DNA of 64,000 nucleotides, from the IMG/VR virus record IMGVR_UViG_3300045988_152944; one strand, 5' to 3'. Shown here in pieces: positions 10,778 to 64,000 of the stretch. The notes below the pieces were generated by a model. The model saw only the letters and a list, made by a program, of their open reading frames with translations, searched no databases and had not been told where the DNA came from. How positions within the stretch are numbered: the stretch's first letter is position 1; each line of letters begins with the position of its first letter. This DNA is from a virus. The position numbers and the translations under genes were made by a program.

Positions 10778-12054
10778 AAAATTTTCGGCAAAGGCCCCGC
10801 ATCCCCTTCAGGGGTGTGGGGGAATTGCCTCCTCCTTTCTATTAGTTTTGTTGAATTGTGTCTAATCCTTTTAAGGTTCTTATAACTTATTGAACCATTG
10901 TTTACCTTTTCTCCGTCTAAATTTCTGATATCTAAAAATCCTGATTTGCGTCTACCAAAAATCACATATTGTTTATTTTGATATTCTACCGTATCAAATA
11001 AGTCAAACCCAAAAACGTTGCCAATTAGTTGATTATTCTTTTTATATCCACCCTTTGAAAAATTATTTTTATGGATTTGTCTACTCTGCCTTCTAACACA
11101 CTTTTGATAAATATAATAATCTAAAGACTTCGCCTTTGGATTACCACTTATACACCGAGCATCTATGTAGTGTGCTTTCGGCAGATTATTTTCAATACGA
11201 GTGTTTTTAGTTATATAGCCATATGTTTCGTGGACATTTGAATATAACGCACATAATCTGTCAAATAGCGTCTTACACATAATCCCCATAAACGCAGCAT
11301 CTCGATAACTTTTACCACGTTTGAACTTTAATTCAACTTCGCCCTTGTGATAAGCTTTATGACAAGTTTCGCACAAGGTAATTAAATTATTCGGTGCATT
11401 GCCACCTGCTTTACGACTTTCAATATGATGTACATTTAATACATTATCTTTTGATTTACCGTGGCAACATTGGCATTCGTGGTGATCGCGGAATAATACA
11501 TAGGCTCTCACATTCCAGAAACCTAATTGCTCGCCCTGTTGATATTCTTTTCCCGATATTTCGGGATTGTTTATCTTCTGGATATCGAATTGAGCGGTTT
11601 CGACAATAAGTTTAGTTATCGGTAAAATCGCATACAAGCGTTTTATAACTTGAATATGCGAATTTATCTTTTGTTCAACACTTGGAGCAAGCCATCCTTT
11701 GTGTTTTGAATAAACACGATTGTTAAATCTTGCAGGGCGATATCTCAACCGGTTTCTTCTCGTTCTTCTTGCTTCTCTACGAGATGATAGTTTATTTACA
11801 ATATCATTACGCAATTCGACATCAGCTTCATATAGCACTTGTTTGTCCGTTGTGGCAGAAACACCAATATGCTTACTTCCGACATCAATTCCAAGATTCA
11901 CTTCTTGTGTTTGATTTTCACAATCGAATAATAACTGAATTGTAAACGGTTCGTATTTTACTATTTTTGCTTTATTTTGTTTTAGCAATTTTCTTGCTTT
12001 TGCTTCTTTGCAAGGCATTAATGGTTTGCCTTGTTTGTTTAATACATATACCAT
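10750..12054 (-). CDS. iscB: IscB RNA-guided nuclease (434 aa)
   Basis: N-terminal PLMP motif (GKPLMPC), RuvC-I GIDVGSKHIG, Arg-rich bridge helix RREARRTRRNRLRYR, HNH (VHHIESRKAGGNAPNNLITLCETCH), RuvC-III AHYIDA. Confidence 0.85.
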   Translation of the reverse strand: MVYVLNKQGKPLMPCKEAKARKLLKQNKAKIVKYEPFTIQLLFDCENQTQEVNLGIDVGSKHIGVSATTDKQVLYEADVELRNDIVNKLSSRREARRTRRNRLRYRPARFNNRVYSKHKGWLAPSVEQKINSHIQVIKRLYAILPITKLIVETAQFDIQKINNPEISGKEYQQGEQLGFWNVRAYVLFRDHHECQCCHGKSKDNVLNVHHIESRKAGGNAPNNLITLCETCHKAYHKGEVELKFKRGKSYRDAAFMGIMCKTLFDRLCALYSNVHETYGYITKNTRIENNLPKAHYIDARCISGNPKAKSLDYYIYQKCVRRQSRQIHKNNFSKGGYKKNNQLIGNVFGFDLFDTVEYQNKQYVIFGRRKSGFLDIRNLDGEKVNNGSISYKNLKRIRHNSTKLIERRRQFPHTPEGDAGPLPKILWRNKYVLL

Positions 12055-26620: not shown

Positions 26621-28492
26621 CTATCTTCGCCGCCCAAATGGATTAGTGAATCCATTAAACGGATTGGCGCTTTGTCTTTGCTTGAATCCTTGAGCAATTC
26701 GATTACTAAACAAAACATCCATATTTGTAGTTGGTTCGGCTGAACCTAAAATTTCTTCTCTTCGCAATTGTGCCAAGTGATGCGCCGCCAACACACAGGT
26801 GTAACATCTATCGTCGTGTAGCTTCCTGGATTTTTCTGGCGGCAAACCGTATTTCACATCGCCGCTAGGTGTTTTTGTTTTTACAATTGCTACAAGTTCT
26901 TCTTTCATAAGATCAATTTCAAGTAGTGCTCGCAATTCTTCTTTTGAAAGTTCGTATTTTTCCCCATCTTTTTCCCAAACTCCGCGTTTGGGTACCGGCA
27001 TTGGGAAAATTAAATAATCGTTTATGATCATTTCTGCACATTCACTAAACATTGTTGTGCGCCACTTGCGCGGCTCAATGATTCGACAAACATCCTTAGC
27101 TTGTCTGAATTTTTCTGCCTGTTCTTTAGCTGTATCATCAGTTAAATCGATAATACCCGCGTGCTCGACCCCATCACGATCTGTCCAAGGAAGCATTAGA
27201 TTGTCTGCATAACTACGACCACCACCCCCAGAACCAGCGTCAACATAAAACATAACGTTTTCGTACTCGGGTGATTTCCCGTTATATGCTACAATGAGTT
27301 TGCGAATCCACTCTAATTGTTCGGGAGAACGTAAAGGCTTCTTATCGCCGTTTGGTAATTTTTCGATAAGGTTAATACCATTAACAATTTTACCCATCCA
27401 TCCGCGTTTTTTGTCTTTCCAATATTCAACAATAAGCACAAAACTGTTGTCTTGTTGCAATGCGGGGTCAAAAAATAAACCATAATGGTGTTCTGGACCT
27501 TCTGATTTAAAGATTGGTAAATAGTCTTGTTCGTTTCGTAAAATATCTTGTCGTTTTACTAACGCGTCAATACCACCCGTGTTATCGAATATGTTATAAT
27601 ACTCGCGCATTGCTCGAGACTCGTTGCTTTTTAATGCGTCATCGATCTCACTTTGTTTAAGCAATGGTGACATTAATTTTCCGTTGAGTTTCGGTGCAAG
27701 CGGAATATCACAATTAATATCTGCACAAAAATATCCAGGTATACCCATCATCATATTGGTGGCACAAAGTTTATACATGGACCACAAATGGGTATTGATG
27801 TCTTCAGCTGACGACGAGTAAATACACTGTGTTGGTATATCCTTTGGATAAACCGACGCATCAAAACCAGAGCCTGTTTTAAAATCACGGTTTTGCGCTG
27901 TAAAAGGTTCTGTTAAATCGAAAAAGGCTTGTGGAATCTTGCCGGCCTCGTCGTAGAAGTTAATATTAGAACGAACACCGACAACAGTCTCTGGTTTACC
28001 TACAAGCGCCCTAATACGCGAACCGTTATAGAGATTACACTCATAACCCTTTTGGCTATGGGTAAACCCGTCGGTATTAGCATTGCTCTTGATGAGTTCA
28101 TCAAAAAACACATCTGTCGTGTTCAACAATGAAGCAATATTCTTTTTTGCAATATCTTCGATTTTCATAAAGGTGTCAAAAGACTGACGCCCCGAAACGT
28201 TCATGATATTTATTTTAAATTGTGGGAACAAAACAGCCTTCGCCATTAAATACACCGCTCCCAAAAATGTTTTACCCGCGTTTCGTGAACATACCCAAGC
28301 GGCTTTTTCTGCCGTCCAGGTGCCCATAATAATCCACCGCTGATAATCCAACAATTGTATTCCAAAAATTTTTTCAATAAATCGAGTGGGATGCTTGCGG
28401 CCCCATTGAATTAACCGATTATATCTTTCAAAACTTTCTTGTTTGCGAATATTTACTTCGTTATCTGTGAGATTCCCATAGACTGAAATCAA
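26621..28492 (-). CDS. terL: terminase large subunit
   Basis: Walker A-like CSRNAGKT, Walker B-like INFYDEAG, acidic nuclease-region residues. TTG start overlaps the upstream stop (TTGA), with AGGAGA 8 nt upstream. Confidence 0.8.
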   Translation of the reverse strand: MISVYGNLTDNEVNIRKQESFERYNRLIQWGRKHPTRFIEKIFGIQLLDYQRWIIMGTWTAEKAAWVCSRNAGKTFLGAVYLMAKAVLFPQFKINIMNVSGRQSFDTFMKIEDIAKKNIASLLNTTDVFFDELIKSNANTDGFTHSQKGYECNLYNGSRIRALVGKPETVVGVRSNINFYDEAGKIPQAFFDLTEPFTAQNRDFKTGSGFDASVYPKDIPTQCIYSSSAEDINTHLWSMYKLCATNMMMGIPGYFCADINCDIPLAPKLNGKLMSPLLKQSEIDDALKSNESRAMREYYNIFDNTGGIDALVKRQDILRNEQDYLPIFKSEGPEHHYGLFFDPALQQDNSFVLIVEYWKDKKRGWMGKIVNGINLIEKLPNGDKKPLRSPEQLEWIRKLIVAYNGKSPEYENVMFYVDAGSGGGGRSYADNLMLPWTDRDGVEHAGIIDLTDDTAKEQAEKFRQAKDVCRIIEPRKWRTTMFSECAEMIINDYLIFPMPVPKRGVWEKDGEKYELSKEELRALLEIDLMKEELVAIVKTKTPSGDVKYGLPPEKSRKLHDDRCYTCVLAAHHLAQLRREEILGSAEPTTNMDVLFSNRIAQGFKQRQSANPFNGFTNPFGRRR

Positions 28493-30999: not shown

Positions 31000-31230
31000 C
31001 TAGATAGTTCATTGAACTTCTCACGACTAAAGTCGTGAGATTCTTGGGAACTTCCGACCACTGCCGGAATATTTACCAAGCTAACCCCGTCGTCCCAACG
31101 GTTGTTTATATTTAGGCTAATTGTTTAAGCCCTTCATTAAGAATATTTATCGCCGCATTAACATCTCTATCATGATGAGTGTGACAAACGGGGCAATCCC
31201 ATTCTCTGACTTTTAGGTCTTTTGTCTCAG
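31000..31230 (-). ncRNA. candidate TnpB omega/reRNA (overlaps the tnpB 3' end; bounds approximate)
   Basis: Downstream of the stop: perfect hairpin CTCACGAC-TTTA-GTCGTGAG (31020-31039) plus TTCCG..CGGAA and CCGT..ACGG stems, in the position expected for the right-end guide RNA scaffold. Confidence 0.5.
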
Positions 31231-32209
31231 TGTTCTTATATCCACAAACGCTACAAGTCTGCGAACTCGGGAAGAATTTGTCAACTTTAATAACCATTCT
31301 TCCATACCAACGTGCTTTATACTCCAACTCTCTTACAAATTCTGACCAAGAAACATCATTGATTGCTTGCGCGAGTTTGTGATTTTTAACCATATTTTTT
31401 ATTTGCAAATCTTCAAGACAAATCACATCATTTTCTCGAATGATAACTGTTGAGAGTTTTTGTAGAAAATCTTTACGTTGATTTGAAATTTTCTCATGCA
31501 ATCTCGCGACTTTTATTCTTGCTTTGTTACGGTTAGAACCATCTTTTGATTTTCGAGATAATTCTTTTTGTAACTTTGCAAGTTTATTTAACGAGTTTTT
31601 GAGATATTTCGGATTATTGACAACCTCACCATCGCTCGTGATACAAAACTCTTTAAGACCCAGGTCTATGCCGACCACATTGTTTGTAATCGGCAATGGT
31701 TGTATATCCACATCCACACAGCACAACGAAACGTAGTATTTTCCGCTGGGCTCTTGTGAAACCGTCGCGTTTACTATTCTACCTTGTGGTACCAACTTGT
31801 TTTTCGTTTTTACCAATCCAAGTTTTGGAAGTTGAATGTAACCGCCAAGATATTTTATGGTGCCATTCCTATATTTAGAGTTGTAAGAATATTTATGAGT
31901 TTTCTTACTTTTGAAATTTGGAAACCCAGCGTGTTCTTTAAAGAACTTTTTATAAGCATTGTCTAAATCTTTGAGAGAAGATTGAAGAGCAGTGGAATCA
32001 ACTTCTGTAAGCCATTCAAGTTCAGCTTTTAGTTTAGTCATCGCTTTCGAACATTGAACGTAAGTTATATTTTTCTTTTCGGTTTTATATAATTCAATCT
32101 TTTCAGCAAGATACTTGTTATATACAAATCGGCAACAACCAAATGTTTTTGCAATTATTTCTTTCTGCTTTTCGTTTGGATATATACGATATTTATAAGA
32201 TTTTTCCAC
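31112..32209 (-). CDS. tnpB: TnpB RNA-guided endonuclease (365 aa)
   Basis: N-terminus YKYRIYPN..Q, RuvC D (GIDLG) and E (VICLEDL), zinc finger [25 protein letters not shown] start with AAAGGAGG RBS. Confidence 0.9.
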
Positions 32210-34870: not shown

Positions 34871-35190
34871 CTTTACACCCTCGGTTTCCCGATATTTCTT
34901 AGGGGAGTAGATTATCTCATCAACTCATTTCCTGTTACCGTAGTGAGCTGCTCAGCGCTTTGAATGTTGGAGTTTCACCAACACCCTACTCTACTTGCTT
35001 ACTTTCAAACATATTTCTTGTTTGATACGCGTTCGATAATCGTTACACTTTCCTTATTAAAGGCTTAGCACGGTGTTCCCTACGCAGGTTCACCGTTAGC
35101 AGGATTTCATCCCACACCTTGGATTTCCAAGTTCACTGAGTTATCATTCGATTGTCACCAACCGACGGACCCTGTATACGTTAAGTCACT
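34871..35190 (-). other. group I-like self-splicing intron, ORF-less (320 nt)
   Basis: Stop-filled insert. The 5' exon ends in U (35191) and the intron ends in G (34871). Exon CCGAU can pair with intron GUCGG about 25 nt in (P1). Other stems: UCGG-GAAA-CCGA tetraloop hairpin, CUUGG-AAAU-CCAAG, GUUGG..CCAAC. Confidence 0.6.
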
Positions 35191-36825
35191 ATCGGAGTGT
35201 CGTAATGTTGAAGTATCATATATACTGTAAATGATTCCACTCTTAATATATTGATACCAATAGTCCATATCTTCGGACGATACTACTTTACAAGGGTTGT
35301 GTTCGTGCGAATCAATCATCGGGCTTCGGCACAGGTCAACACAACCCACACTTCGCTGCCTCCAGAAATTTGAATACACTTGGTCAGGCCCAATTAACCC
35401 CACCGGTTCCAACCCAAGCGCCGATTGACACTGTGCCACGGGATCAGAAATCATAAAACTATAATTTCCTCTCACCCATATCTTACCAATCTTCGCCTTG
35501 TTTATCGTCTCAGCAATATTGCGATATATTTTCTTCTGTACATGAGCGTCTTCCAACATTATCGGGTTTTTAATAATAGCCCTCAACGCCGTGCTTTGCG
35601 CCCCATTATACAATTCTTTAAAACTGACTTGTTCACCCTTGCAACCCAACATATACAACATTGTATACAATTGGTCACCTGAACAAATCTTTTTAATCCA
35701 ATCAATTGTCGGTTGAATCAATTCCAGAATATCATCCTTATTGATATCCAACACTTGCAGATATTGATAATTGGCCAGCACATATTCGTCATCGTACTTT
35801 TTATTATATCTCGCAACTCCCCACTGAATACCAGCCGCATCTACATACTTTTGATATTCATACCAAGATACATAATATTTATACATCTTGAATTGAGATT
35901 CACTCAATATAACGTCAATATCCTCCAACCTATGTGAAATTCCCCACCGGTCACGAATTGAATCAATACCGTGTTCAGCTCCAAACTCTCGAAAATCAAA
36001 CGGGACCAAACACCCCTTCACAAAAACGCTACGAACAACGAACGACGACGGCGTATACGATAAATTCATATCTTCTGCCCACAGTGCCGCAAACTTAGGA
36101 TCGACCAATCCCTGTCCATCAGCGCAATTCAACTCGATGTCCATAGTTCTTTCTTTAATCTGCTTCTTCCCGGTCTCAGGATTAGGGCAAATCCAATCCA
36201 CCTGTTGGTCCTTCACCACATTAAAGAAATCCTTAACAACACACACTCTCGGCGTCCTCACCCACATAACACTCGAAAACGCCAACGCAAAATACGCATG
36301 ATATTTCGCCAAATTCATTTCTGAAATCTTGGTGTCCAACCCGCACATCAGATTTTTATACAGGGTGTCATAAAGAGCTTCATTAATAAAGGTAATAGTG
36401 TTGCGCCTCATTTGTCCCGAACCACAACAAAACCTCACATAATGAATACCGTTAACGTCAAATCCGTTCTTGGCCAATTCTTTATATTCTTTTTTGGTCA
36501 CGACTTCAACGTTAACAATATCTTTAACAAACAACGCATCTGTCAAAAACCGATTAAGAATACCAGCTTCTTTGGTTCGTCCTTCTCTCTTCGCAGCTCT
36601 GATAGCGCGACGAAATTGTTGGACATCGTTAAAAATCTCTCGATGACTTCTGGTATCATTATAATATTTTCTGATTTGTTGAAAAACCAGATTATCACCA
36701 ATTGATACCAGTGCCCCATCGCGAGCTGCCTTAGATTTTGAATAATTAACTATATTTAAGTTGTTCTCTACAATAAAACTAGATTTAAGTTTAAAAACTT
36801 GATATAGGTTTTGTAAATTAGGCAC
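35191..36825 (-). CDS. YonO-like single-subunit RNA polymerase, exon 1
   Basis: Ends ...CRSPMIDSHEHNPCKVV...STLRHSD, resembling the R.P...H...P / S.DxDGD region of YonO and eukaryotic RdRP-type two-barrel polymerases. GTG start 2 nt after the upstream stop. Confidence 0.6.
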
Positions 36826-37947: not shown

Positions 37948-37984
37948 AGTAGTGTAGTTCCTTAGAAGTTATATAGATTCCCAA

Positions 37985-38006
37985 AGAAAGAGGATATTCT
38001 CTTTCT
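37985..38006 (-). promoter_or_regulatory. 5'-leader hairpin between P1 and the first left-arm gene
   Basis: Perfect AGAAAGAG-N6-CTCTTTCT. Confidence 0.4.
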
Positions 38007-38021
38007 TCTTATTATATTTAT

Positions 38022-38050
38022 ATTATAACACATATCATATTTAATATCAA
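38022..38050 (-). promoter_or_regulatory. sigma-70/sigma-A type promoter P1 (leftward)
   Basis: TTGATA-17 nt-TATAAT on the minus strand. Confidence 0.7.
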
Positions 38051-38108
38051 CCTATGATGACATTTTTATAAAATTTTTAACATTTTTTAATTTTTCTGTC
38101 ATTGTAGG

Positions 38109-38137
38109 TTGACTTTTCTTTTCAAAGTTGTTATAAT
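38109..38137 (+). promoter_or_regulatory. consensus promoter P2 (rightward)
   Basis: TTGACT-17 nt-TATAAT. Confidence 0.75.
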
Positions 38138-38139
38138 TT

Positions 38140-38291
38140 GGGTGGTGGGCGGGTATAGATAAGAAGATCTTTTTTATTTATATATAAATATATAATATAT
38201 ATTCTATAATTATAACATATAATATGTTAAATATATATTAAAATATAATATAATAAAAAATAGTGATCTCATTCTCCCGACCACCCACCCC
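38140..38291. repeat. G-box / AT-core / C-box element between convergent promoters
   Basis: GGGTGGTGGGCGGG (38140-38153) and CCCGACCACCCACCCC (38276-38291) are imperfect inverted repeats. They bracket ~120 bp of almost pure A/T. Confidence 0.7.
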
Positions 38292-38292
38292 T

Positions 38293-38321
38293 ATTATACA
38301 CAGAAAAATACCATTTGTCAA
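38293..38321 (-). promoter_or_regulatory. consensus promoter P3 (leftward)
   Basis: TTGACA-17 nt-TATAAT on the minus strand. Confidence 0.75.
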
Positions 38322-38421
38322 CTACCAATGACAGAAAATACAAAAAAATAAAAAAATATTTTCCACAAAGCAAAACTACCACGCATGCTCACAGAATCTT
38401 AAAGAATTATGTCATCTACGG

Positions 38422-38450
38422 TTGACTTTTGTTGGCACATAGTGTATAAT
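38422..38450 (+). promoter_or_regulatory. consensus promoter P4 (rightward, early arm)
   Basis: TTGACT-17 nt-TATAAT. Confidence 0.8.
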
Positions 38451-38552
38451 ATTTATATATAAGATATAAAAGGAGTATAGTGATGTAACAATCCTAATTA
38501 AATAGAGCAACAAATTCCAACCAAATAACCAACTATGCTATGATGAGGCTAC

Positions 38553-38750
38553 ATGACACGTAAATCTAATCCTACAACAACAACAGCAACCCCGCAACCA
38601 CAAAAACCACCAAAATCCCAAACTCCGAATCCTCAACCTCCGACGACTCGACAATTGCCCCGCGCAATTATCCACAAAAAGAAGAAACCCAAAAATCTTC
38701 CGCCGGAACCAATAACCGAAGATTCTTACATAGATCAAGTTATGAGTTAA
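38553..38750 (+). CDS. questionable Pro/Thr/Lys-rich ORF (65 aa), or an untranslated C-rich leader
   Basis: Open frame but no convincing RBS; extreme C/A-rich, G-poor composition. Confidence 0.25.
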   Translation: MTRKSNPTTTTATPQPQKPPKSQTPNPQPPTTRQLPRAIIHKKKKPKNLPPEPITEDSYIDQVMS

Positions 38751-38775
38751 ACGCCTAACCCCAAGGAGCAACCAA

Positions 38776-39144
38776 ATGTGTATTCTTCAAAAAACACTGC
38801 CTTATACTACCAAAACACGCCAACGTCTGTCAAGGTACCCAACCATTTACATTATTTGCTATTTCGCACACGTCGGTTGTTTATCTTTCCCTTTCACCGG
38901 GAAGCATGATAATAAAGGTCGCCCCCTTGTGTACCAGTTTGATGATCACGATGGTCTATATCCCGAGTATTGCCTTCGCAACATTAACGAAGTCACTTCC
39001 GTTCACATCTGTGAATGGACGACGAATGCTGACGACGTACAACGACTCATAACCAAATGGCAAACCAAATACGACGAATATCGCGCCGCAATGATCAAAA
39101 CTTATGAGGAAAACTTACAAGCCTATGAGAATAACTCTAACTAA
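38776..39144 (+). CDS. early protein, MCIL-family paralog A (122 aa)
   Basis: AAGGAG RBS. Alignable with the 40053 gene: MCIL.K.LP..KT...L...P.IY, PLVY.FDDH.G.YPEY.LR. Confidence 0.7.
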   Translation: MCILQKTLPYTTKTRQRLSRYPTIYIICYFAHVGCLSFPFTGKHDNKGRPLVYQFDDHDGLYPEYCLRNINEVTSVHICEWTTNADDVQRLITKWQTKYDEYRAAMIKTYEENLQAYENNSN

Positions 39145-39850
39145 CCAAAGCTGTTTTGACTTACTCAAAACCACGCCAGATAAATCAGTCGACTTGGTTC
39201 TCATCAATCCGCCCTACGAGGTCTCTAGAGATACAAATTTCCAATCAGGGGAACCCAAAGGCGCTGACACCGACCGCTTTCGCGTGTCGATGGATTTCGG
39301 CGAGTGGGATAATAATTTCACGGGGTTGGATTTGGTAATCAAAGAGTGCTACAGACTCTTAAAAGACGGCGGAACTTTAATATGCTTTTACGATCTGTGG
39401 AAGCTCACAACCTTAAAACACTACTTTGAGCTCGCGAACTTTAAACAGCTCCGTTTCATCGAATGGGTGAAAACAAATCCGGTCCCGCTTAATAGCAAAA
39501 CGAACTACCTCACAAATTCCAGAGAGATAGCCATCGTGGGTGTGAAAAAAGGGAAGCCGACATTCAATTCAGAGTATGACAATGGCATTTATAATTTTCC
39601 CATATGTCACGACAAAGGCAGATTCCACCCCACCCAAAAACCTGTCGCATTGCTTGAAGACTTGATTCTCAAACATTCGCACGAGAACGATACTGTTCTC
39701 GATTGTTTCGCCGGGAGCGGTTCGACCGCTGTCGCTGCCCATAACACGAACAGGAATTTCATCGGATGTGAACTGTCGAAAGAGTATTTCGACAAAACCT
39801 TGCAACGGTTCGACGCACTAGGGTTCAAATACACGGAGGCGGACCTATGA
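39125..39850 (+). CDS. DNA methyltransferase (beta-class N6A/N4C, orphan)
   Basis: Motif IV DLVLINPPY lies near the N-terminus and motif I DCFAGSGST near the C-terminus. No nuclease partner is nearby. The start could also be ATG 39104. Confidence 0.85.
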   Translation: MRITLTNQSCFDLLKTTPDKSVDLVLINPPYEVSRDTNFQSGEPKGADTDRFRVSMDFGEWDNNFTGLDLVIKECYRLLKDGGTLICFYDLWKLTTLKHYFELANFKQLRFIEWVKTNPVPLNSKTNYLTNSREIAIVGVKKGKPTFNSEYDNGIYNFPICHDKGRFHPTQKPVALLEDLILKHSHENDTVLDCFAGSGSTAVAAHNTNRNFIGCELSKEYFDKTLQRFDALGFKYTEADL

Positions 39851-44777: not shown

Positions 44778-46808
44778 ATGAGAAACATTCAAAAAATTAT
44801 CGAAAATATTGTTACAAAAGAACCCAATCCTGATACCAAATACACGCCACACCTGGTGTTACATTGGTACACAAAAACAGAAGGACAAATTTATCACGAT
44901 TTGTCTACTGGTGAGAGACTGTCACGTGATGACATAGATACGTTTTTCAGATGGGAGAACTTCTCTTATAATTATTTAAAATATTGCACGGGGGCGTCGC
45001 CTCGAATCACATATATTAAATACCATCACAAACAAAAAGTAATGGAATTGGCATATGTGAATATTCCAATGAATCGCGCCAAACCTGGCGAAATTCGTAC
45101 GTTTGAATATAACAAGAATTGGTCGGGCAAGACCGATAGGTATTTTGTTGATTTGTCCCAATATCCTCGCCGACTGTTTGGGAGCGATGGTATGCTCGCC
45201 CCGATAGTGATGGTGAAAAACATCATGCGGGACACTGGTGCTCATCGAAAGGTCCAAATTTATAATGAACTCTTTCCAGATGATAAGATAACAGCAATAA
45301 AATTCTCGTGGTCCAAAATAGAGTATGTGACAAAGTATCTCACATATCAAAGACAACTCACGATTGCAACATCAAAAACTGCAAAAGCGGCGCTTATTGC
45401 CAAAGGTAATAGTTTGCTTGCGGCTTCTCCCACAACATTTCCGAAAGAAATTATGAGTGTTGGTATTGTGAGGAATTTCCCTGGTATCTCTATTGTGGAG
45501 GCGAAGCCGTGGTTTGGCTTAACAACGCGATTTTATTACGATGGTAAAACTTTCGCAGCAGCCAAATCACCGAAGTTTGATGTAAGTTATGCTTGCTCAA
45601 ATATTAAAGATGTTTCAATCTACAATCCCGAAGATTTACAAAACGGGATGTTTAACAAGTATGCTGATTTGTTTGTTAAACCTGCACTCGAACCGGTAAG
45701 CTGGGACGATCGGTATCGTTGTAAAAATCCTGATCAAAATAATAAATTTATCAACTTACAAATATTGGCCGCAATGATCAAAAATCCCTTGTACGAACAG
45801 TTGGCAAAATCATACAAAGGAATCCAGTTACTGAATCTCACCAGAGCATACACCCAAGATGAACTGTTTGGTGACAACTTAAACAAAAAGGCCACAACAG
45901 TTGACAAGTGGTTGGGGTTAAACAAATATCAAATCAATCGTTTAATATCTGAACAAAACCCTAATGATCCCTATTCAACACGAAAAGGGATTAGCATTTT
46001 CCGAAAACTCGTTGGCGAAAATGCGTCCTCGTTGGATAATCACACAAGTGATATGTATATTGATCATTTGGATGCGCTCGCATCGCTGACCACAAACTAT
46101 TTATGGGATCCAGAACTAATTCCTTGGGCGAAGCAAATATTGCGAAAAATCGTCAAAAGCACCCAAGTGTCATATAATATCGAGTTGTTACTAGATGCAA
46201 TGCGTTTATGGCGGTCGTTAAATTGGCCACGTCCTACATTGCCAAACATATCCGTCTCTGAATTACAAAGACTTCATGATTTGTATATGACAATGTCAAA
46301 CGAACAGTTCAGACAACGCCAAGCAATGTATGCGGAGGAAACCCGCAAACAAGAGGAGCGTAGGCAAAAAGAAAATAAACTCAAACTGGAATTTCGTCAA
46401 CAACTGAATTATGAAGACGAGAATTATCTCATTCGACTGCCGGTTGATGGCGACGAAATCCAACAAGAAGGTTTGACGCTACACCATTGTGTGGGTGGCT
46501 ACGCCTATAGCCACGAGAGCGGTGCTACGACAATTATGTTTTTGCGTAAAAAGTCCGAACCTGATAAACCTTTCTACACCATTGAAGTAGAGATTGGACT
46601 TGCGGACGGCAAGGTTGCAGGATTGCGGATAAAGCAAGCGCATTGTGTAAACAATGGTTGGTTGGGTTTGTGCGTCTCAGCAGCGCAGTTTGTATATAAA
46701 TGGTGCCGCATCAAAAATATTGAGGTAAGGAAAGAAATTTTATTATGTAAGTCACATGGGTATAGCCCAACCAACCAGTTCTTGCCCGATAGTGTTTTGG
46801 AGGTTTAA
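44778..46808 (+). CDS. PcfJ-like protein (676 aa)
   Basis: C-terminal EGLTLHHCVGGYAYSHESGATTIMFLRKK...FYTIEVE resembles the PcfJ domain of conjugative elements, as recalled from memory; AAAGGAG RBS. Confidence 0.45.
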   Translation: MRNIQKIIENIVTKEPNPDTKYTPHLVLHWYTKTEGQIYHDLSTGERLSRDDIDTFFRWENFSYNYLKYCTGASPRITYIKYHHKQKVMELAYVNIPMNRAKPGEIRTFEYNKNWSGKTDRYFVDLSQYPRRLFGSDGMLAPIVMVKNIMRDTGAHRKVQIYNELFPDDKITAIKFSWSKIEYVTKYLTYQRQLTIATSKTAKAALIAKGNSLLAASPTTFPKEIMSVGIVRNFPGISIVEAKPWFGLTTRFYYDGKTFAAAKSPKFDVSYACSNIKDVSIYNPEDLQNGMFNKYADLFVKPALEPVSWDDRYRCKNPDQNNKFINLQILAAMIKNPLYEQLAKSYKGIQLLNLTRAYTQDELFGDNLNKKATTVDKWLGLNKYQINRLISEQNPNDPYSTRKGISIFRKLVGENASSLDNHTSDMYIDHLDALASLTTNYLWDPELIPWAKQILRKIVKSTQVSYNIELLLDAMRLWRSLNWPRPTLPNISVSELQRLHDLYMTMSNEQFRQRQAMYAEETRKQEERRQKENKLKLEFRQQLNYEDENYLIRLPVDGDEIQQEGLTLHHCVGGYAYSHESGATTIMFLRKKSEPDKPFYTIEVEIGLADGKVAGLRIKQAHCVNNGWLGLCVSAAQFVYKWCRIKNIEVRKEILLCKSHGYSPTNQFLPDSVLEV

Positions 46809-58347: not shown

Positions 58348-58776
58348 ATGGAATTCATGAAACAAAATGTAGCAAAACTCAATCAACAAGCAATCGACAA
58401 CCTCGACGATTTGATGGAAAGTGTAACAAGTTATGTGCTCCGCCACTGGGACGAATATGACGATCTGAAGCAGATCCCCCTCGAGGTGCTCGAACACGGT
58501 TGCGTAAGTGGAATCGTCAGTGGGCTCGTCTGGTATTCCGACACGACTGCTTATTACGCAAAAAACAAAGACGAGATTAATAAGCTTCTTTATGAAAAGA
58601 TGGACGAATGGGGGGTATATAGCCTCAACGAAATATTCTCTCGCGATCCGAGCTGGGACGAAGAAGACCCGCTGGCCCTTTATGACTACAATCAGAACCT
58701 TCTCGCTTGGTTCGGCTTCGAAGAAACAATGCGTAACTTTGCACGAGAATTTGAAGAATTCGAAGAACTTATTTAA
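58348..58776 (+). CDS. hypothetical early protein (142 aa)
   Basis: GAGGAG RBS. Confidence 0.65.
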   Translation: MEFMKQNVAKLNQQAIDNLDDLMESVTSYVLRHWDEYDDLKQIPLEVLEHGCVSGIVSGLVWYSDTTAYYAKNKDEINKLLYEKMDEWGVYSLNEIFSRDPSWDEEDPLALYDYNQNLLAWFGFEETMRNFAREFEEFEELI

Positions 58777-59724: not shown

Positions 59725-59753
59725 ATTATAACACAGGGAGAGTGAAAAGTCAA
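59725..59753 (-). promoter_or_regulatory. consensus promoter
   Basis: TTGACT-17 nt-TATAAT on the minus strand. The post -10 sequence ATAAATATAA is shared with P1. Confidence 0.75.
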
Positions 59754-59900
59754 CAGGGAGTGACAAAATATTTATTTTTTTTATATGTTTCTTTCCGGAG
59801 TGATAACAGGTCAAATAGATGCGCAATTTCATTAACGCGCAACACCGCAGGTGTAAGCGTTTGAAACACTGGCGAAGCCGCGTAGGGGTTGAAGGGGACG

Positions 59901-60116
59901 TTAGTCCCTTTCTATTTCCTGGGCAGCTTCGGGGATCTCTACATTTAATAATTTAGCTACTCGTAGCCAAGCCTGATGAAAGAGAGGAGTATACTCAAAT
60001 ACAAAGGAGGTCTTGATGGGATTGTCTTTTGCTGGTTTAATATCTATTGGTGGGAATCCTAATTGTATAAGTTTACGAGCTACTGCTGCGTTGGTGATAA
60101 CTTTTGTAGTTTGCAT
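59901..60116 (-). CDS. hypothetical protein (71 aa)
   Basis: Start moved to ATG 60116 (GAGGAG RBS; TAATATG junction with the upstream gene). Confidence 0.55.
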   Translation of the reverse strand: MQTTKVITNAAVARKLIQLGFPPIDIKPAKDNPIKTSFVFEYTPLFHQAWLRVAKLLNVEIPEAAQEIERD

Positions 60117-60117
60117 A

Positions 60118-60849
60118 TTAATAATCTCCTCTATTGAATTTACCAGGGTTTCTTGTGAACATGTCGTTCTCGGTCGGTGATAATCCATAATACTCTATTA
60201 ATGACTGAATATCGAGTTCCCTATATTGAGGTTTACTAGAAGGCAGATGGCCAGCCAAATAGCAAATATCTTCATAGCTTACTGGGTCAAGTATTGCAAA
60301 CGTAGCCGGTCGTTTAGCGCGTTTTTTTACACTATCTACAGGAGAGATGGAGGGTATTTTCAAATTTGGTTTTTTCTTCATTTGAAACGGAGTTATATCG
60401 TCGGCGGGAATGGTGAAATCAAAATACTTTCTCCATCCTTGTAATTGGATTTGTCGTTCTGGTGTATTTGGTTGAGTGAATGATAAACCACCATCTAACA
60501 CAAATGATAAGTATGTTGTGGTTTTCCCTTGTGAATCTTTTGTATAATATCCTTTCAATATCGGAATCTCATTTTGTAGATCTGAGTAATATTGTTCTCG
60601 TGCTGAGGTTAATATTAAATCTAACGGTTTTAATTTGATGTCATATAATGGCTGAAACATTTGTTTAAGCCAGTCGTTATTATATGAGTGTGAAGATTCT
60701 GTGGCAGTTGCTGGTGTAGTGGCCGTAGTGGTGGTATTAGAGTTTGATAACAAAGCGTTAATAGTTGTACGCATTTGTTGTATTTGTTGCTGTACTTGTT
60801 GTTCGAATTGTTGTAGCTGTTGTGATAGCTGTTCAATTAATGTTTGCAT
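60118..60849 (-). CDS. hypothetical protein with a Q-rich N-terminal coiled coil (243 aa)
   Basis: Track ORF; weak AAGGA RBS. Confidence 0.55.
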   Translation of the reverse strand: MQTLIEQLSQQLQQFEQQVQQQIQQMRTTINALLSNSNTTTTATTPATATESSHSYNNDWLKQMFQPLYDIKLKPLDLILTSAREQYYSDLQNEIPILKGYYTKDSQGKTTTYLSFVLDGGLSFTQPNTPERQIQLQGWRKYFDFTIPADDITPFQMKKKPNLKIPSISPVDSVKKRAKRPATFAILDPVSYEDICYLAGHLPSSKPQYRELDIQSLIEYYGLSPTENDMFTRNPGKFNRGDY

Positions 60850-60912
60850 CTTTGTAAGTCCTTTTTTAGTTTATTTTAATATGTGTCGCCACATATCGTG
60901 TTTCTTCTATTC

Positions 60913-60934
60913 AGGAACCCCTATAGGGGTTCCT
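60913..60934. repeat. perfect 22-bp palindrome
   Basis: AGGAACCCC-TATA-GGGGTTCCT. Confidence 0.9.
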
Positions 60935-60935
60935 T

Positions 60936-61006
60936 GTATTACATGTATTACATATGACATATTGTATTACAGTATTACATGTAGTACAGTACTACAGTGT
61001 AGTACA
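60936..61006. repeat. array of ~8 short GTAnTACA units
   Basis: GTATTACA x4, then GTAGTACA, GTACTACA and GTAGTACA at 8-9 bp spacing, with one 11-nt interruption. Confidence 0.85.
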
Positions 61007-61019
61007 TATATGTTATATG

Positions 61020-61049
61020 GTCATATCAACTCTTTAGAGTTGATATGAC
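61020..61049. repeat. 13-bp perfect inverted repeat with a 4-nt loop
   Basis: GTCATATCAACTC-TTTA-GAGTTGATATGAC. Confidence 0.9.
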
Positions 61050-61117
61050 ATATGAAATATGAAATATTTGTTTTATGATATATTGAAATACTGATATACT
61101 GACATATGACATATAAT

Positions 61118-61186
61118 CACGTGCACGCGCATGCACATACACACGCATATACGCACGCCCGCACGCGCATGTATACATATGTGCAG
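61118..61186. repeat. alternating pyrimidine-purine (Z-DNA-prone) tract
   Basis: A 41-nt perfect Py-Pu alternation (CACGTGCACGCGCATGCACATACACACGCATATACGCACGC), a CCC break, then 27 more alternating nt. Confidence 0.85.
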
Positions 61187-61218
61187 AGTCTGGCTGTAAA
61201 TACAACCACGTCAAAACC

Positions 61219-61260
61219 GGCGGCGGACATCTCCCCGTCGCCTTTGGTTTGCCCGCCGCC
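61219..61260 (-). terminator. putative terminator after ssb
   Basis: GGCGGCGG..CCGCCGCC outer stem (alternative inner stem possible), followed by GGTTTT on the minus strand. Confidence 0.4.
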
Positions 61261-61635
61261 TTAAAACGGCAGTTCTTCGTAGTCCTCTGAGGATTCGGGC
61301 GTAACCTCGTCCGCCGCCACTTCAACAGAGTCGTCGTTGTTGGTTTCGTCTACCGGTCCACTACGTTGCTTAACCACGGTGAACGAAAACTTATTAGGTT
61401 CACCGGTTCCAGCGCCATTCAGGACGAGGTAGACATACCCGCCCCTTTGAAGATTGTGTTCGGCGTAAGTCGCTTGCCTACCCATGGCGACAACTTCGAT
61501 GCTGCACCATTTGCCGAAATCTTTACCAGTGCAGACAGTATAGGCCGCCGTCTTTACTTTGTTACCGCGAGCCAATTGCTTTTCGCCGATGGTGATATTG
61601 GTGATGATTTTCCCGAATACGGTCGTCTCAATCAT
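61261..61635 (-). CDS. ssb: single-stranded DNA-binding protein (124 aa)
   Basis: OB-fold-sized N-terminal domain and an acidic tail ending DYEELPF, matching the canonical SSB D-(D/E)-(L/I)-P-F tip; AGGAGGG RBS. Confidence 0.75.
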   Translation of the reverse strand: MIETTVFGKIITNITIGEKQLARGNKVKTAAYTVCTGKDFGKWCSIEVVAMGRQATYAEHNLQRGGYVYLVLNGAGTGEPNKFSFTVVKQRSGPVDETNNDDSVEVAADEVTPESSEDYEELPF

Positions 61636-61679
61636 TAGATTATCCCTCCTGTGGGGTGTTATTATTGTGCGGGGCTTTT

Positions 61680-62048
61680 TTACTTGGCCGCCGCCGCCGC
61701 TTTTTGTGCTGCCCTCATTGCTTTCATGCGTTCTGAGTTTGCGATACGTTGCTCTTCGGTCATAGTGCGGGTCACGCGGACACTTCTTAATGACAAAAAT
61801 TCCTTAGGTGCCTCAACCTCATACGCCACCGGCTGCCCATCATAAGTGGATATCGAGCGCAGGATATATTCTTCAGGACTCTTTGTCATTAATCCCCTGA
61901 GTTTGGTGACTATTGTGTTGTCACTGGTCCAGATGGTCATCTTGTCGCCGTTGCGTTCAAAAACGATCGAAGTCTCTTGTTCGTCCAAAGGGTTATTCGG
62001 GAAAGCGACCAAATCGTCAACCGTGTACGTCTTTTTTTGTTTAACCAT
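61680..62048 (-). CDS. hypothetical protein (122 aa)
   Basis: GGAGGT RBS downstream of a consensus promoter. Confidence 0.6.
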   Translation of the reverse strand: MVKQKKTYTVDDLVAFPNNPLDEQETSIVFERNGDKMTIWTSDNTIVTKLRGLMTKSPEEYILRSISTYDGQPVAYEVEAPKEFLSLRSVRVTRTMTEEQRIANSERMKAMRAAQKAAAAAK

Positions 62049-62082
62049 AAGCTAAACCTCCATTATTCTTTTTTATACTTCT

Positions 62083-62111
62083 ATTATACCACACGGCGGC
62101 GGGTATGTCAA
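62083..62111 (-). promoter_or_regulatory. consensus promoter
   Basis: TTGACA-17 nt-TATAAT on the minus strand. Confidence 0.75.
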
Positions 62112-62117
62112 CACAGG

Positions 62118-62147
62118 GTGACAAATACTTCTAACTTGTCGTATAAT
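62118..62147 (+). promoter_or_regulatory. back-to-back divergent promoter
   Basis: GTGACA-18 nt-TATAAT; its -35 is the other half of the TGTCA-N8-TGACA palindrome. Confidence 0.45.
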
Positions 62148-62296
62148 GAAGACACCTTATTCCACAAACGAAAATACCTCGGTCGATAAATCTGTCGACC
62201 AAACTCTTTTCTTTTACTACAGAGCTTAAATAAGCTCAAGAAAAACCAAAAAAGGGTATCTCAGACCATTTTCCCCCATCACGCGTCCGCCTACAC

Positions 62297-62325
62297 ACAA
62301 AAAATACCCAGGCTGCTATGCCTGG
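62297..62325 (-). terminator. rho-independent terminator
   Basis: CCAGGC-N6-GCCTGG followed by a T-run on the minus strand; 10 nt after the stop at 62335. Confidence 0.65.
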
Positions 62326-62334
62326 ATATCTTTC

Positions 62335-62763
62335 TTACTCTTCATCGTCCCATTCGTCGTCTTCTTCGTCCGCCAGCATAATCTGGCACTCGGGGCAGAT
62401 CTTGTTGTACATCGCCACCCATCCTTTCGGATTTCTCCATACCGTCCTGGTGGTCACGTCACACCAATGAGCGATGATGCCGACGACGGACTTGATCGCC
62501 TGGGGACGATCGTACTCGAATTTGAAGCACGGGCACTCACGAATGTTGTACTCCTCACCCAACGCCCCCTGATGCGTCTCATACTTGCTCCCTTCCACCG
62601 GGATGCCAGTCTTGAACTTCGAGCAGGAATGTTCTTTATTGTCGCGGGCGTTCATGCAAGACCAGCACAAGGTGTCTGTCTTCAGATTGTTGAAGAAGAT
62701 TCTGGCGTTGATGGCTTCGACTTCCGACTTGGTTAATTTGGTTGCTTTAATGACTCTGTTCAT
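62335..62763 (-). CDS. Cys-rich acidic-tailed protein, possible regulator (142 aa)
   Basis: AGGAGA RBS; CWSC..CSKF..CPCF..CPEC; C-terminus EEDDEWDDEE. Confidence 0.6.
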   Translation of the reverse strand: MNRVIKATKLTKSEVEAINARIFFNNLKTDTLCWSCMNARDNKEHSCSKFKTGIPVEGSKYETHQGALGEEYNIRECPCFKFEYDRPQAIKSVVGIIAHWCDVTTRTVWRNPKGWVAMYNKICPECQIMLADEEDDEWDDEE

Positions 62764-62793
62764 ATCACCGTCTCCTAATCTTTTTATACTTTA

Positions 62794-62822
62794 AGTATAA
62801 CATAGGTTCGACAGTTTGTCAA
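62794..62822 (-). promoter_or_regulatory. near-consensus promoter
   Basis: TTGACA-17 nt-TATACT on the minus strand. Confidence 0.7.
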
Positions 62823-63159
62823 CATATTTTTAGAAAAAAAAATAAATATTTTTCAAGAAAAAAATAGTGCAAAATTTTCCTATTCAATAGTGTAAAAATT
62901 TACCATCGGCGGCGGACATCTTTTTATGCGGCTGCGCCCGTTTTTTACCCGTTAGCACTGGTTTAGAAAACTGAACATATCGCTACCAAAACCGTCCTGG
63001 CGGAGCTGCATTTTTATAAAAAAACAGGGTATTTTGGGATATTTGTGAAGAAAATTGTAACACGATGTCGACGGCTGATGACGGTCGATGATGACGTAAT
63101 GTACCATAAACGGTACATAACTTTAGACAAAAATGACACCGTCCGCCGCCTGAAGTAGG

Positions 63160-63197
63160 ACAAAATATTCCTATTATAGAACAAAATATTCCTATTA
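63160..63197 (+). repeat. 17-mer direct repeat at 21-bp period
   Basis: ACAAAATATTCCTATTA x2; a degenerate third copy (AAAATTTTCCTATTCAA) near 62872. Confidence 0.8.
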
Positions 63198-63231
63198 AAA
63201 TGACAAAAAATTACCATCGATTTTGCGGCGA

Positions 63232-63261
63232 GTTGTCCACTTTTCCACATAGTTATCCACA
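63232..63261 (+). promoter_or_regulatory. DnaA-box cluster
   Basis: TTGTCCACT, TTTTCCACA and a perfect TTATCCACA in tandem direct orientation (consensus TTWTNCACA). Confidence 0.6.
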
Positions 63262-63407
63262 TCAAAAGTCACGTTTTCGATGCCTTTCGTTACCAAAATT
63301 GTATGGTTTTTTTAACGAGCGATGACGACGGATGATGCCAAAAGTATCAGTATACTGACACTATGTTTCGTAGAGTAATGTTTATTATAAGCGACAAATA
63401 ACCCTTT

Positions 63408-63429
63408 AATGTCACTTATAATTGACATT
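63408..63429. promoter_or_regulatory. perfect palindromic operator-like site
   Basis: AATGTCA-N8-TGACATT; the same TGTCA-N8-TGACA architecture as at six promoters. Confidence 0.6.
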
Positions 63430-63451
63430 ATAATGATACTGTAAGGTACTA

Positions 63452-63475
63452 AAATGACCCTATAAATGACCCTAT
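63452..63475 (+). repeat. tandem 12-mers
   Basis: AAATGACCCTAT x2, followed by degenerate copies AAAGTGCC and AAATGTCCCCC. Confidence 0.8.
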
Positions 63476-63567
63476 AAAGTGCCAAAATGTCCCCCTTTGA
63501 TGGCGTAAATGACGCTGAAAACGATCAAATTCCTGCGGTTTCTCTGTAAAGTTAGTACCCATTTTTG

Positions 63568-63624
63568 CTTGTGCAAAACTTGCACTCTTGTGTGCAAACT
63601 CGACTTTTTGTGTGCAAACTCGCG
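63568..63624 (+). repeat. three iteron-like direct repeats at 20-bp period
   Basis: CTTGTGCAAAACT, TTGTGTGCAAACTCG and TTGTGTGCAAACTCG. Confidence 0.8.
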
Positions 63625-63796
63625 TTACAAAGGAATCAAATAGGGTGTTGGTTTACGCCAAAAAAGGCACAAAATCGGATGCCTACAGCTGTTCACGTCC
63701 GCCGCCTACGTGTACCAACGTCTATCGCCTACGTGCAAATAAAGCATAAAAAATGAGCCAAATTGGTGCAGGTTTTACACTTTTCCAGACGATATT

Positions 63797-63824
63797 GGGG
63801 TGGTTTTTACACATTTTCCACCCC
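63797..63824. repeat. GGGGTGG / CCACCCC hairpin
   Basis: Perfect 7-bp stem, 14-nt loop; the arms resemble the G/C boxes of the promoter hub. Confidence 0.7.
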
Positions 63825-63906
63825 TTTAATTCCGTCGAATTCGACCAGTTTAACCGCCTCGATTTCGACACGGTGGCCCAAAGTGGTCAGCCGTCCCTAT
63901 TTTAAT

Positions 63907-63931
63907 AAAAAAAAGAGGCATCTCAGCCTCT
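63907..63931 (-). terminator. rho-independent terminator for a gene lying beyond the right edge
   Basis: AGAGGC-N6-GCCTCT followed by T8 on the minus strand. Confidence 0.6.
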
Positions 63932-64000
63932 CTCTCGCGCACGCATGTATATATACTATATATAATACGCTCACTTTTTCAGCGCGTTTTTAGCGATCCA

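Follow-up and report, generated by a model that had tools for sequence, protein, structure and literature searches.

A conserved array of short repeats and palindromes between an SSB-like gene and an unannotated gene of a large gut phage is a candidate protein-assembly site and possible iteron-type replication origin

A 410-bp segment (positions 60850 to 61260) of the viral DNA in IMG/VR record IMGVR_UViG_3300045988_152944, of which a stretch of 64,000 nucleotides (nt), here called the window, was analyzed, is most likely a cis-acting protein-assembly site that belongs with the gene next to it. The segment sits between a gene for a protein resembling single-stranded-DNA-binding protein (SSB) and a gene for a protein of 243 amino acids (aa); because both genes are on the minus strand, it is the upstream region of the 243-aa gene. 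The window is part of a large tailed phage, an uncultured gut phage of ∼135 to 140 kb that encodes a YonO-like RNA polymerase. The elements of the segment are real, nonrandom, and noncoding; they are conserved, exclusive to this locus, linked to lineage, and easy to melt by composition. From anatomy and comparison, we infer both a protein partner that would bind the repeats and an outcome, the initiation of replication. With a probability of about 40%, the segment would be an iteron-type replication origin, either secondary or specific to this module, with the 243-aa protein as its sequence-specific initiator.

The original prediction had described the segment as free of open reading frames (ORFs) and packed with palindromes, an 8-mer array, and a long Z-DNA-prone tract next to ssb. 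All of the elements that it listed are present at 60850 to 61260 and in the places given for them, with small corrections to counts and lengths. The elements and the two flanking genes are listed here in the order in which the minus strand is read; no strand is given for symmetric elements.

61261-61635, minus strand: divergent SSB-like OB-fold gene, an ORF of 124 aa with an acidic C-terminal tail (...EDYEELPF), directly upstream of the segment in the direction of transcription
61219-61260: GC-rich inverted repeat GGCGGCGGACA...TGCCCGCCGCC, with arms at 61219-61229 and 61250-61260, just past the ssb stop codon
61126-61216: variable spacer holding most of the Z-prone tract, with only 15 of 91 nt aligning to the close relatives L001 or L008
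61118-61185: alternating purine/pyrimidine tract rich in CG and CA/TG steps, Z-DNA-prone by composition, of 41 nt (61118-61158) and 26 nt (61160-61185)
61047-61114, minus strand: AT-rich array of head-to-tail ATAT(G/T/A)TC(A) repeats at a spacing of 7 to 24 nt, a candidate unwinding region
61020-61049: perfect palindrome with 14-bp arms GTCATATCAACTCT/AGAGTTGATATGAC and a 2-nt center, folding z = -6.9
60936-61005: seven GTAnTAC(A) dyad repeats at a spacing of 8 to 10 nt, with one 19-nt gap that holds an ATATGTC unit
60913-60934: 22-bp perfect palindrome AGGAACCCCTA|TAGGGGTTCCT, folding z = -4.0
60879-60896: gene-proximal inverted repeat ATATGTG-N4-CACATAT, ∼30 to 47 nt upstream of the 243-aa start codon, operator-like
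60118-60849, minus strand: 243-aa gene of a small unannotated family, encoding an N-terminal coiled coil, a Thr-rich linker, and a conserved C-terminal alpha/beta domain

The description as ORF-free is effectively right. Mechanical ORFs overlap the segment, and we regard it as noncoding because relatives differ from it by insertions and deletions (indels) of 7, 8, and 21 nt and by the wholesale replacement of one part. The inverted repeat nearest the 243-aa gene was seen as predicted, with 7-bp arms around TCGC; its half-site resembles the ATATGTC repeat, and in L009, L011, L012, and L013 another short palindrome stands at the corresponding position. The 22-bp perfect palindrome is unique in the window and was found in 0 of 100 shuffles. 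Its core, CCCCTATAGGGG, is common to L009, where the flanking arm bases differ and still pair. The GTAnTACA array consists of dyads, as claimed, in 7 copies rather than about 8, and adjacent units form overlapping 17-bp palindromes (TGTAGTACTGTACTACA unit). This word occurs 29 times per kb in the segment and 0.05 times per kb in the window outside it, a difference of ∼600-fold. The hairpin at 61020 to 61049 is perfect, with arms of 14 bp instead of the 13 bp reported for it. Repeats of ATATGAA (period 7, 3.6 copies) and TGATATAC (period 8, 3.9 copies) are likewise present, and there are 7 ATATnTC units in the window.

These elements are well beyond chance. Individual palindromes of the segment fold at z = -4 to -7 relative to shuffles, and the entire segment, taken as single-stranded DNA, folds far better than shuffles (z = -7.9). 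In duplex stability, the stretch from 61000 to 61117 belongs to the lowest three 100-bp segments of the 64-kb window (99.8th percentile of instability), which is a property of composition only. The GC-rich inverted repeat at 61219 to 61260 is built from the word GGCGGCGG, which is over-represented in this phage group; its arms are kept in L001 and L008, and its loop carries a 13-nt indel. No Rfam match reached the gathering score, and the sub-threshold matches, to microRNA models, were spurious and confined to the CA/TG-rich tract. A likeness of TAATAC...CTATAGGGG to a T7-type promoter was dropped, as the spacing does not fit and no T7-type polymerase is present in the phage; no definition of a YonO promoter was found in the literature.

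The comparison that carries most of the argument covers nine lineages, including the window. The identity of their family proteins to that of the window is 98% in L008, 89% in L001 to L004, 48% in L009/L010, ∼40% in L005 and in L006/L007, 37% in L012, and 27 to 28% in L011 and L013. A common layout runs through all nine, consisting of the SSB-like gene, a noncoding block of repeats and palindromes of 250 to 460 bp, the family gene, and usually a small gene. The block was seen wherever upstream DNA was present, and the SSB-like gene wherever the contig reaches that far (the window, L001 to L004, L005, L006, L009/L010, and L013). Each block holds 6- to 9-bp repeats together with perfect palindromes, and in each lineage the repeats fall into two classes with words of their own:

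Window, L008, and L001: GTAnTACA and ATATnTCA
L009: GTATAC and TAAACA
L005: TAAGTGCA/TAATTGCA
L006: TAAGTAC
L012: GTAATAC and CAATACA
L011 and L013: TGTACA and TGAAC

Most words of the first class are variants of a GTA..TAC dyad. The density of the repeat words is 15 to 39 per kb within the block versus 0 to 1.3 per kb elsewhere in each locus, and since the repeat words are confined to the block, the block is a single address and not a dispersed operator. Words that change with the lineage are what would be expected of a site that co-evolves with its binding protein. Two of the roles first suggested for the segment, a second origin and a regulatory platform for the 243-aa gene, fit with its fixed position in nine lineages, its lineage-linked words, and its restriction to one locus.

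The closest relatives suggest that half of the segment is under purifying selection. Relative to L001, the AT-rich half (60850 to 61125) is 96.3% identical, compared with 91 to 92% for the ssb and 243-aa genes; relative to L008, the AT-rich half is 97.8% identical, ssb 95.5%, and the 243-aa gene 98.9%. Differences among close relatives in this half are mostly gains and losses of whole repeat units. The ATATGTC unit within the GTAnTACA array is present in 1 copy in the window, 2 in L008, and 4 in L001, and the array at 61047 to 61114 is nearly identical in L001 and L008 except for unit indels. Lineages down to 40% protein identity keep the core of the central hairpin, TCAACTCT..AGAGTTGA, at one copy per locus in the window and in L001 to L010. 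The center of this hairpin (61020 to 61049) reads AA in the window but TT in both L001 and L008. A second palindrome, with 15-bp arms, has the center AG in L008 and CT in L001, plus a compensatory change in its stem. Flipped centers of this kind may be the footprint of hairpin or cruciform formation in vivo.

Such comparisons also bear on whether the segment has any specific function. A slippage-prone AT-rich spacer could simply accumulate repeats and palindromes, and the copy number of the repeats does vary among close relatives, with one part of the segment freely replaced. This explanation has very little probability in our estimation. Against L001, substitutions are fewer in the AT-rich half than in the genes on either side; the architecture is still recognizable at 27% protein identity, with words specific to each lineage; a palindrome is preserved by compensatory change; and the hairpin core is kept down to 40% protein identity.

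The long Z-DNA-prone tract, which the original prediction had emphasized, was given too much weight. The 41-nt alternating run is confirmed, and the second run measures 26 nt rather than 27; the two are the longest alternating runs in the 64 kb, the maximum in 200 mononucleotide shuffles being 23 nt. A related tract reported at 63936 is also present, as a 21-nt alternating run (63936 to 63956) that ranks third in the window. Hairpin formation by the alternating tracts was considered and rejected. They fold no better than shuffles (z between -1.0 and +1.4; z = +1.4 for 61118 to 61185), so their special property is alternation and not self-pairing. In the closest relatives the tract is not conserved. 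L008 and L001 have unrelated sequence at 61126 to 61216, including the perfect palindrome with 15-bp arms, and the alternation left there amounts to only 14 nt and 8 nt, respectively. Conservation in the closest relatives divides the segment, with the AT-rich half kept and the part from 61126 to 61216, with most of the alternating tract, replaced. Tracts of the same kind do recur in distant lineages, as GC-rich alternating tracts within the same block: L012 and L013 have 3 to 4 each, interleaved with the repeats, and L005 has two, while those of L006, L009, L011, and L008 are shorter or interrupted. The exact tract appears to be dispensable, but the property keeps reappearing.

In a bolder interpretation, the locus would be a self-contained cassette of origin plus initiator with a fold not seen before, and supercoil-sensitive non-B DNA would be selected so that DNA topology gates initiation or switching. 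Its working parts would be the 3 to 4 cruciform-capable palindromes and the Z-prone tracts interleaved with binding sites, as in L012 and L013. We consider it improbable.

The tract at 63936 to 63956 is GC-rich and is conserved in L008 (2866 to 2890). By eye, it adjoins a terminator-like hairpin (∼63914 to 63931) with a T-run on the minus strand. Together with the tract at 61118 to 61185, it brackets an early segment made up of the 142-aa, 122-aa, and ssb genes.

The anatomy of the segment is that of an iteron-type origin because many short sites flank a conserved palindrome, accompanied by a meltable block, an inverted repeat, and an SSB-like neighbor. Repeated candidate initiator sites are present, 7 GTAnTAC and 7 ATATnTC in the window, with equivalent arrays in all nine lineages, and next to them lies the AT-rich stretch at 61000 to 61117 that by composition is easily unwound. 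Also in favor of an origin, the block and the 243-aa gene together form an AT-rich island, 8 to 13 GC points under its flanks, in 5 of the 6 lineages measured, L013 being the one without such a drop. If the segment works in this manner, the 243-aa protein would oligomerize via its N-terminal coiled coil, and its C-terminal domain would bind the 7- to 9-bp repeats, both the GTAnTACA dyads and the ATATnTCA units. As these repeats lie on either side of the palindrome with 14-bp arms, cooperative coating would bend and stress the DNA, the AT-rich repeat block at 61000 to 61117 would melt, and the SSB-like protein would coat the separated strands. A helicase and primase of the phage or the host would then be loaded. 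The inverted repeat at 60879 to 60896 would let the 243-aa protein throttle its own gene. The palindromes may be able to extrude as cruciforms, and the alternating tract could absorb negative supercoils, a role for which its exact sequence would be dispensable and its recurring property sufficient.

Known origins of this type offer partial parallels. In the lambda origin with its O protein and in iteron plasmids (RepA/RepE/pi and RepA_N), iterons are dyads or semi-palindromes accompanied by an AT-rich unwinding stretch and a palindrome. Their initiators are small and nonenzymatic, and each represses its own synthesis through an inverted repeat at the promoter of its gene. The present locus resembles these systems in its dyad iterons, AT-rich stretch, palindrome, inverted repeat near the gene, and small, nonenzymatic candidate initiator. 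It differs in that lambda and plasmid iterons are 17 to 22 bp long and spaced at the helical repeat, whereas the units here are 6 to 9 bp and closely packed, and in that neither sequence nor fold searches matched O, Rep_3/RepA, or RepA_N and no DnaA boxes were found. The origins of staphylococcal pathogenicity islands (SaPIs) have 6 to 12 penta- or hexamer iterons that flank an AT-rich center, lie next to rep, and are read by a winged-helix domain (PMC9371898). The likeness to our segment lies in many very short, lineage-specific iterons around an AT-rich or structured center beside an initiator gene (PMC9371898). In SaPIs, however, a large helicase that loads itself and has a primase partner serves as the initiator, and the origin is downstream of rep; in the window the partner is 243 aa long without an NTPase motif, the site is upstream, and several long perfect palindromes and a Z-prone tract are present. 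RepA_N plasmids have semi-palindromic iterons with 8- to 9-bp sub-repeats (PMC7145576).

The SSB-like identity of the upstream neighbor, a part of the original prediction, is weakly supported. Seven of 8 members of its family match PF00436 (SSB), all below threshold and with a best E value of 3.9e-4, so that no SSB match is above threshold. The best PDB sequence match of the 124-aa protein is an SSB (5odp, E = 0.05), and the protein has the acidic tail noted above. The gene holds the same position in L001, L005, L006, L009, and L013. A tblastn search with the 124-aa protein among GenBank phages gave no match.

The 243-aa protein belongs to a very small family, with 8 representatives among 1.84 billion cluster representatives and 8 in a word-indexed search. 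An AlphaFold2 model based on a 9-sequence alignment (pLDDT 82.5, pTM 0.70) has a coiled coil at residues 4 to 35, a disordered Thr-rich linker at 37 to 55, and for the rest an alpha/beta domain ending in helix, helix, and beta-hairpin. A Foldseek search of the model against PDB and BFVD returned nothing significant (best E = 0.09), and the low-probability matches were mostly winged-helix DNA binders. We take this as a hint of a winged-helix fold, which we do not claim, and binding of DNA by the modeled protein is plausible. A "GKT" in the protein was tried as a Walker A motif and rejected, as it is not conserved in the family. The protein had no tblastn match among GenBank phages, and a peptide-pattern scan of 185,579 reference bacterial genomes found no relatives of the family.

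Its most distant homolog, P0013, has 322 aa, including an extra N-terminal domain, and is encoded at 3199 to 4167 of L014, a 29-kb contig. It too had no tblastn match among GenBank phages. Near its gene are HNH genes and a gene with a weak DUF5659 match. A motif, ATATAATGATAWAG, precedes several L014 genes; it is not enriched in the window.

A number of observations weigh against an origin at this place. Sequence searches of Pfam, PHROGs, NCBIfam, and PDB gave only coiled-coil noise for the 243-aa family, and thus no known initiator; the adjacent syntenic gene matches no initiator family or fold. The family is absent from PLSDB plasmids by tblastn. In L014, the gene for P0013 lies ∼3 kb upstream of a large-terminase gene and is not directly preceded by a repeat array. 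There is no DnaA box in 60850 to 61260, scanned as TTATCCACA with up to 1 mismatch; elsewhere in the window, DnaA-box-like clusters occur at 38294 to 38676 and at 63241 to 63261. Genes for a helicase, loader, or primase do not adjoin the segment, and an AT-rich element at ∼38.2 kb, far more extreme and accompanied by GC clamps and DnaA-like boxes, is a possible main origin. Finally, tandem boxes of 7 to 9 bp are equally typical of ribbon-helix-helix operators and plasmid centromeres.

That last point leads to a different assignment, in which the boxes would be read by a cooperative DNA-binding protein, the 243-aa or the 71-aa product, that switches the 243-aa operon or forms a partition or condensation complex. 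The models are ParR on parC, omega on its heptads, and MetJ on tandem 8-bp met boxes. In these systems, contiguous short boxes, both direct and inverted and in variable copy number, lie upstream of the controlled operon. The likeness extends to the tandem short boxes, some of them palindromic, upstream of an operon, the boxes of ribbon-helix-helix proteins being 7 to 11 bp; in the window, tandem dyad boxes at a 7- to 10-nt spacing stand directly upstream of the operon. A separate short palindrome occupies the place expected of a promoter in most lineages, and the repeats vary with the lineage of the adjacent protein. A promoter scan of the segment found no convincing consensus sigma-70 promoter for the 243-aa gene, whereas those of its neighbors are perfect, so the gene is likely regulated; in favor of the origin, the missing promoter also fits read-through transcription across the site. 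The distant homolog P0013 is found among late genes near the terminase, a frequent place of phage transcription regulators. However, at least 14 boxes and 3 to 4 long perfect palindromes over ∼270 bp exceed what autoregulation of one small operon needs, and the repeat words are not at other promoters. Long palindromes and a meltable block are atypical of the ParR, omega, and MetJ systems. There is no adjacent partition NTPase of the ParA, ParM, or TubZ type, and the 243-aa protein has no conserved Walker motif. Searches of the 243-aa, 71-aa, and 62-aa products found no partition NTPase, ribbon-helix-helix, or helix-turn-helix domain, and in the first two no DNA-binding family of any other known type. 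On balance, an operator or centromere-like array is somewhat unlikely, though it is the main rival of the origin.

The 71-aa gene just mentioned follows the 243-aa gene, and the order of genes in the minus-strand direction is 142-aa, 122-aa, SSB-like 124-aa, the 410-bp segment, 243-aa, 71-aa, and a 62-aa ORF. The 142-aa gene is behind a consensus sigma-70-type promoter at 62822 to 62794 and the 122-aa gene behind another at 62111 to 62083, and the 62-aa ORF has its own promoter at 59753 to 59725. This minus-strand block meets a gene block of opposite orientation near 59.2 kb.

59901-60116, minus strand: 71-aa gene, directly downstream of the 243-aa gene and syntenic in L001 and L009

The homolog of the 71-aa protein in L009 has a weak match to DUF5659 (PF18903, E = 0.008); the window 71-aa protein itself has no match to this domain.

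The 8-mer GGCGGCGG/CCGCCGCC is 30- to 300-fold over-represented in this phage group (window 61219 to 63706; L001, L005, L006, L008, L009, and L014), reaching 23 copies per 10.7 kb in L009 against an expectation of 0.13. It is found in both orientations, often as GATGTCCGCCGCCG, and one copy lies within the spacer of the promoter at 62111 to 62083. It is absent from the AT-rich island of repeat block and 243-aa gene, yet frequent in the surrounding DNA. Upstream of the 142-aa gene, ∼1.2 kb (62764 to 64000) contains no convincing gene and is 80 to 89% identical in L001 and L008. This region has tandem repeats of a 21-mer (2 copies, 63156 to 63197), of a 12-mer (2.2 copies, 63452 to 63478), and of GTGTGCAAACTCG-like units (∼63570 to 63620), along with adjacent DnaA-box-like words at 63241 to 63249 and 63253 to 63261.

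A packaging site was another of the suggested roles. The genes that matter for this question, together with the polymerase gene, are distant from the segment:

26621-28492, minus strand: large terminase gene
24236-26194, minus strand: portal gene
35155-36825, minus strand: YonO-type single-chain RNA polymerase of 556 aa (Pfam RdRP, E = 3.8e-10)

As a pac site, the segment would be recognized through its repeats as small-terminase boxes around a cleavage region. In P1 pac and in SPP1 pacL/pacR, repeated boxes flank a central region, and the segment resembles known pac sites in having repeats on both sides of a central element; bendable AT-rich DNA is a further likeness to the P1, SPP1, and SPbeta sites. 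The position of P0013 ∼3 kb upstream of the large-terminase gene in L014 also speaks for packaging. In the window, however, the large terminase and portal genes are 32 to 35 kb from the segment. In SPbeta-type phages with a YonO polymerase, pac adjoins the polymerase block. The packaging start of SPbeta-type phages lies between yonR and yonP, beside yonO; PMBT24, of the same group, is a headful pac-type phage; and the records of an Enterocloster phage and a related fecal-metagenome scaffold start in pure-AT repeats just upstream of a related polymerase gene. By its own polymerase block the window has a different and more extreme, pure-AT-like element, at 38.16 to 38.26 kb. The coiled coil of the 243-aa protein is N-terminal, which is not the usual order in small terminases, and the protein has no PHROGs match, terminase families included. 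With the terminase and portal genes 32 to 35 kb away, the SPbeta precedent, and the stronger AT-rich element at ∼38.2 kb, a pac or cos site is disfavored, and we hold packaging recognition here to be highly unlikely.

The AT-rich element, 38159 to 38259, is 100 bp long with 94% A+T, and no other duplex in the window comes near its instability. The GC-rich inverted repeat GGGTGGTGGGCGGG/CCCGACCACCCACCC brackets the element, which lies ∼1.3 kb from the polymerase block, with DnaA-box-like words nearby at 38294, 38359, and 38668. The surrounding region (38140 to 38290) falls within a divergent intergenic region (37948 to 38775), between divergent gene blocks and at the minimum of cumulative GC skew. 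The right flank of the element is common to the distant L014 (positions 40 to 100). It is a better candidate than the 410-bp segment for pac or for the main origin.

The replacement of one part of the segment raises the question of mobility. The segment might be an attachment or resolution site, or a remnant end of an IS200/IS605-type insertion sequence (IS) with the 14-bp-arm palindrome as its subterminal hairpin. The stretch from 61126 to 61216 has been swapped for unrelated sequence between genomes whose proteins are 89 to 98% identical, palindrome loops are flipped between relatives, and block and gene form a compositional island. In addition, TnpB-like ORFs in three loci of 144- to 149-kb phage contigs carry the same TCAACTCT..AGAGTTGA hairpin at their 3' ends. 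Yet no integrase, resolvase, or transposase gene adjoins the segment, the TnpB-like gene of the window (31112 to 32209) has a different 3' end, and the position is stable across nine lineages, which is unexpected of a mobile insertion. The absence of any relative from the 185,579 reference bacterial genomes gives no sign of integration. The 92 IMG/VR matches to the 16-base palindrome of the hairpin core are near chance by a rough estimate; among them, only a contig already known carries the 243-aa family. We therefore accept the predicted recombination hotspot as a description, in that sequence has been swapped and loops flipped between close relatives, and not beyond description; a recombination or mobile-element site is very improbable. 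A protelomerase-type telomere site, suggested by TATACGCGCGTATA in L013, was dropped because no such enzyme is encoded nearby.

The hairpin associated with TnpB, TCAACTCT-(A/T)-AGAGTTGA, occurs at 10380 to 10396 of L039, 2737 to 2753 of L083, and 6694 to 6710 of L084. These TnpB-like ORFs (...INADINGAYNI... motif) are in IMG/VR contigs from the metagenome of L008, and the hairpin shares the 8-bp arms of the central palindrome. The window itself encodes a 434-aa RRXRR and HNH protein with an IscB-like architecture (10750 to 12054, minus strand) and, in the TnpB-like gene mentioned above (minus strand), a 365-aa transposase-family protein (phrog_506) with a TnpB-like C terminus. These two look like RNA-guided nuclease or IS-type passengers of the phage genome.

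In other parts of the window, a 421-aa protein with an Mtd_N domain, the N terminus of the major tropism determinant, is encoded at 9512 to 10777 on the minus strand. This domain hints that a target of a diversity-generating retroelement, or a receptor-binding protein, is encoded there with the tail genes. The plus-strand block encodes a DNA methyltransferase (39104 to 39850), a PcfJ-like protein (44778 to 46808), and a DUF7222 protein (58348 to 58776), and a DpnD/PcfM-like gene is in the corresponding block of L001 and L002. Together, these genes recall those of plasmid leading regions or of anti-restriction systems.

The closest relatives of the phage are known solely as metagenome contigs of 135 to 142 kb, and a search for near-identical DNA among GenBank phages found no match to 59800 to 64000. 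The window polymerase is 27 to 36% identical to its nearest database proteins, which come from unannotated gut phage scaffolds, Enterocloster phages, Clostridium phage c-st, and SPbeta-group phages. No origin, packaging site, or regulator has been mapped in any large uncultured gut phage of this type. The segment appears to be a conserved array of a known kind of site that is tied to a protein family without detectable relatives, and the locus joins a well-bounded DNA site to a candidate protein partner whose family has neither annotation nor detectable structural relatives. The nine lineages amount to a natural specificity-swap experiment. The recurring Z-prone tracts and flipped palindrome loops would offer a rare natural case bearing on the function of non-B DNA in a bacterial virus. 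A site that is only an autoregulatory operator would be commonplace, albeit in an unusual phage; a 243-aa protein that binds the repeats would represent a new DNA-binding family and would provide a handle on the start of replication or the timing of gene expression in these phages.

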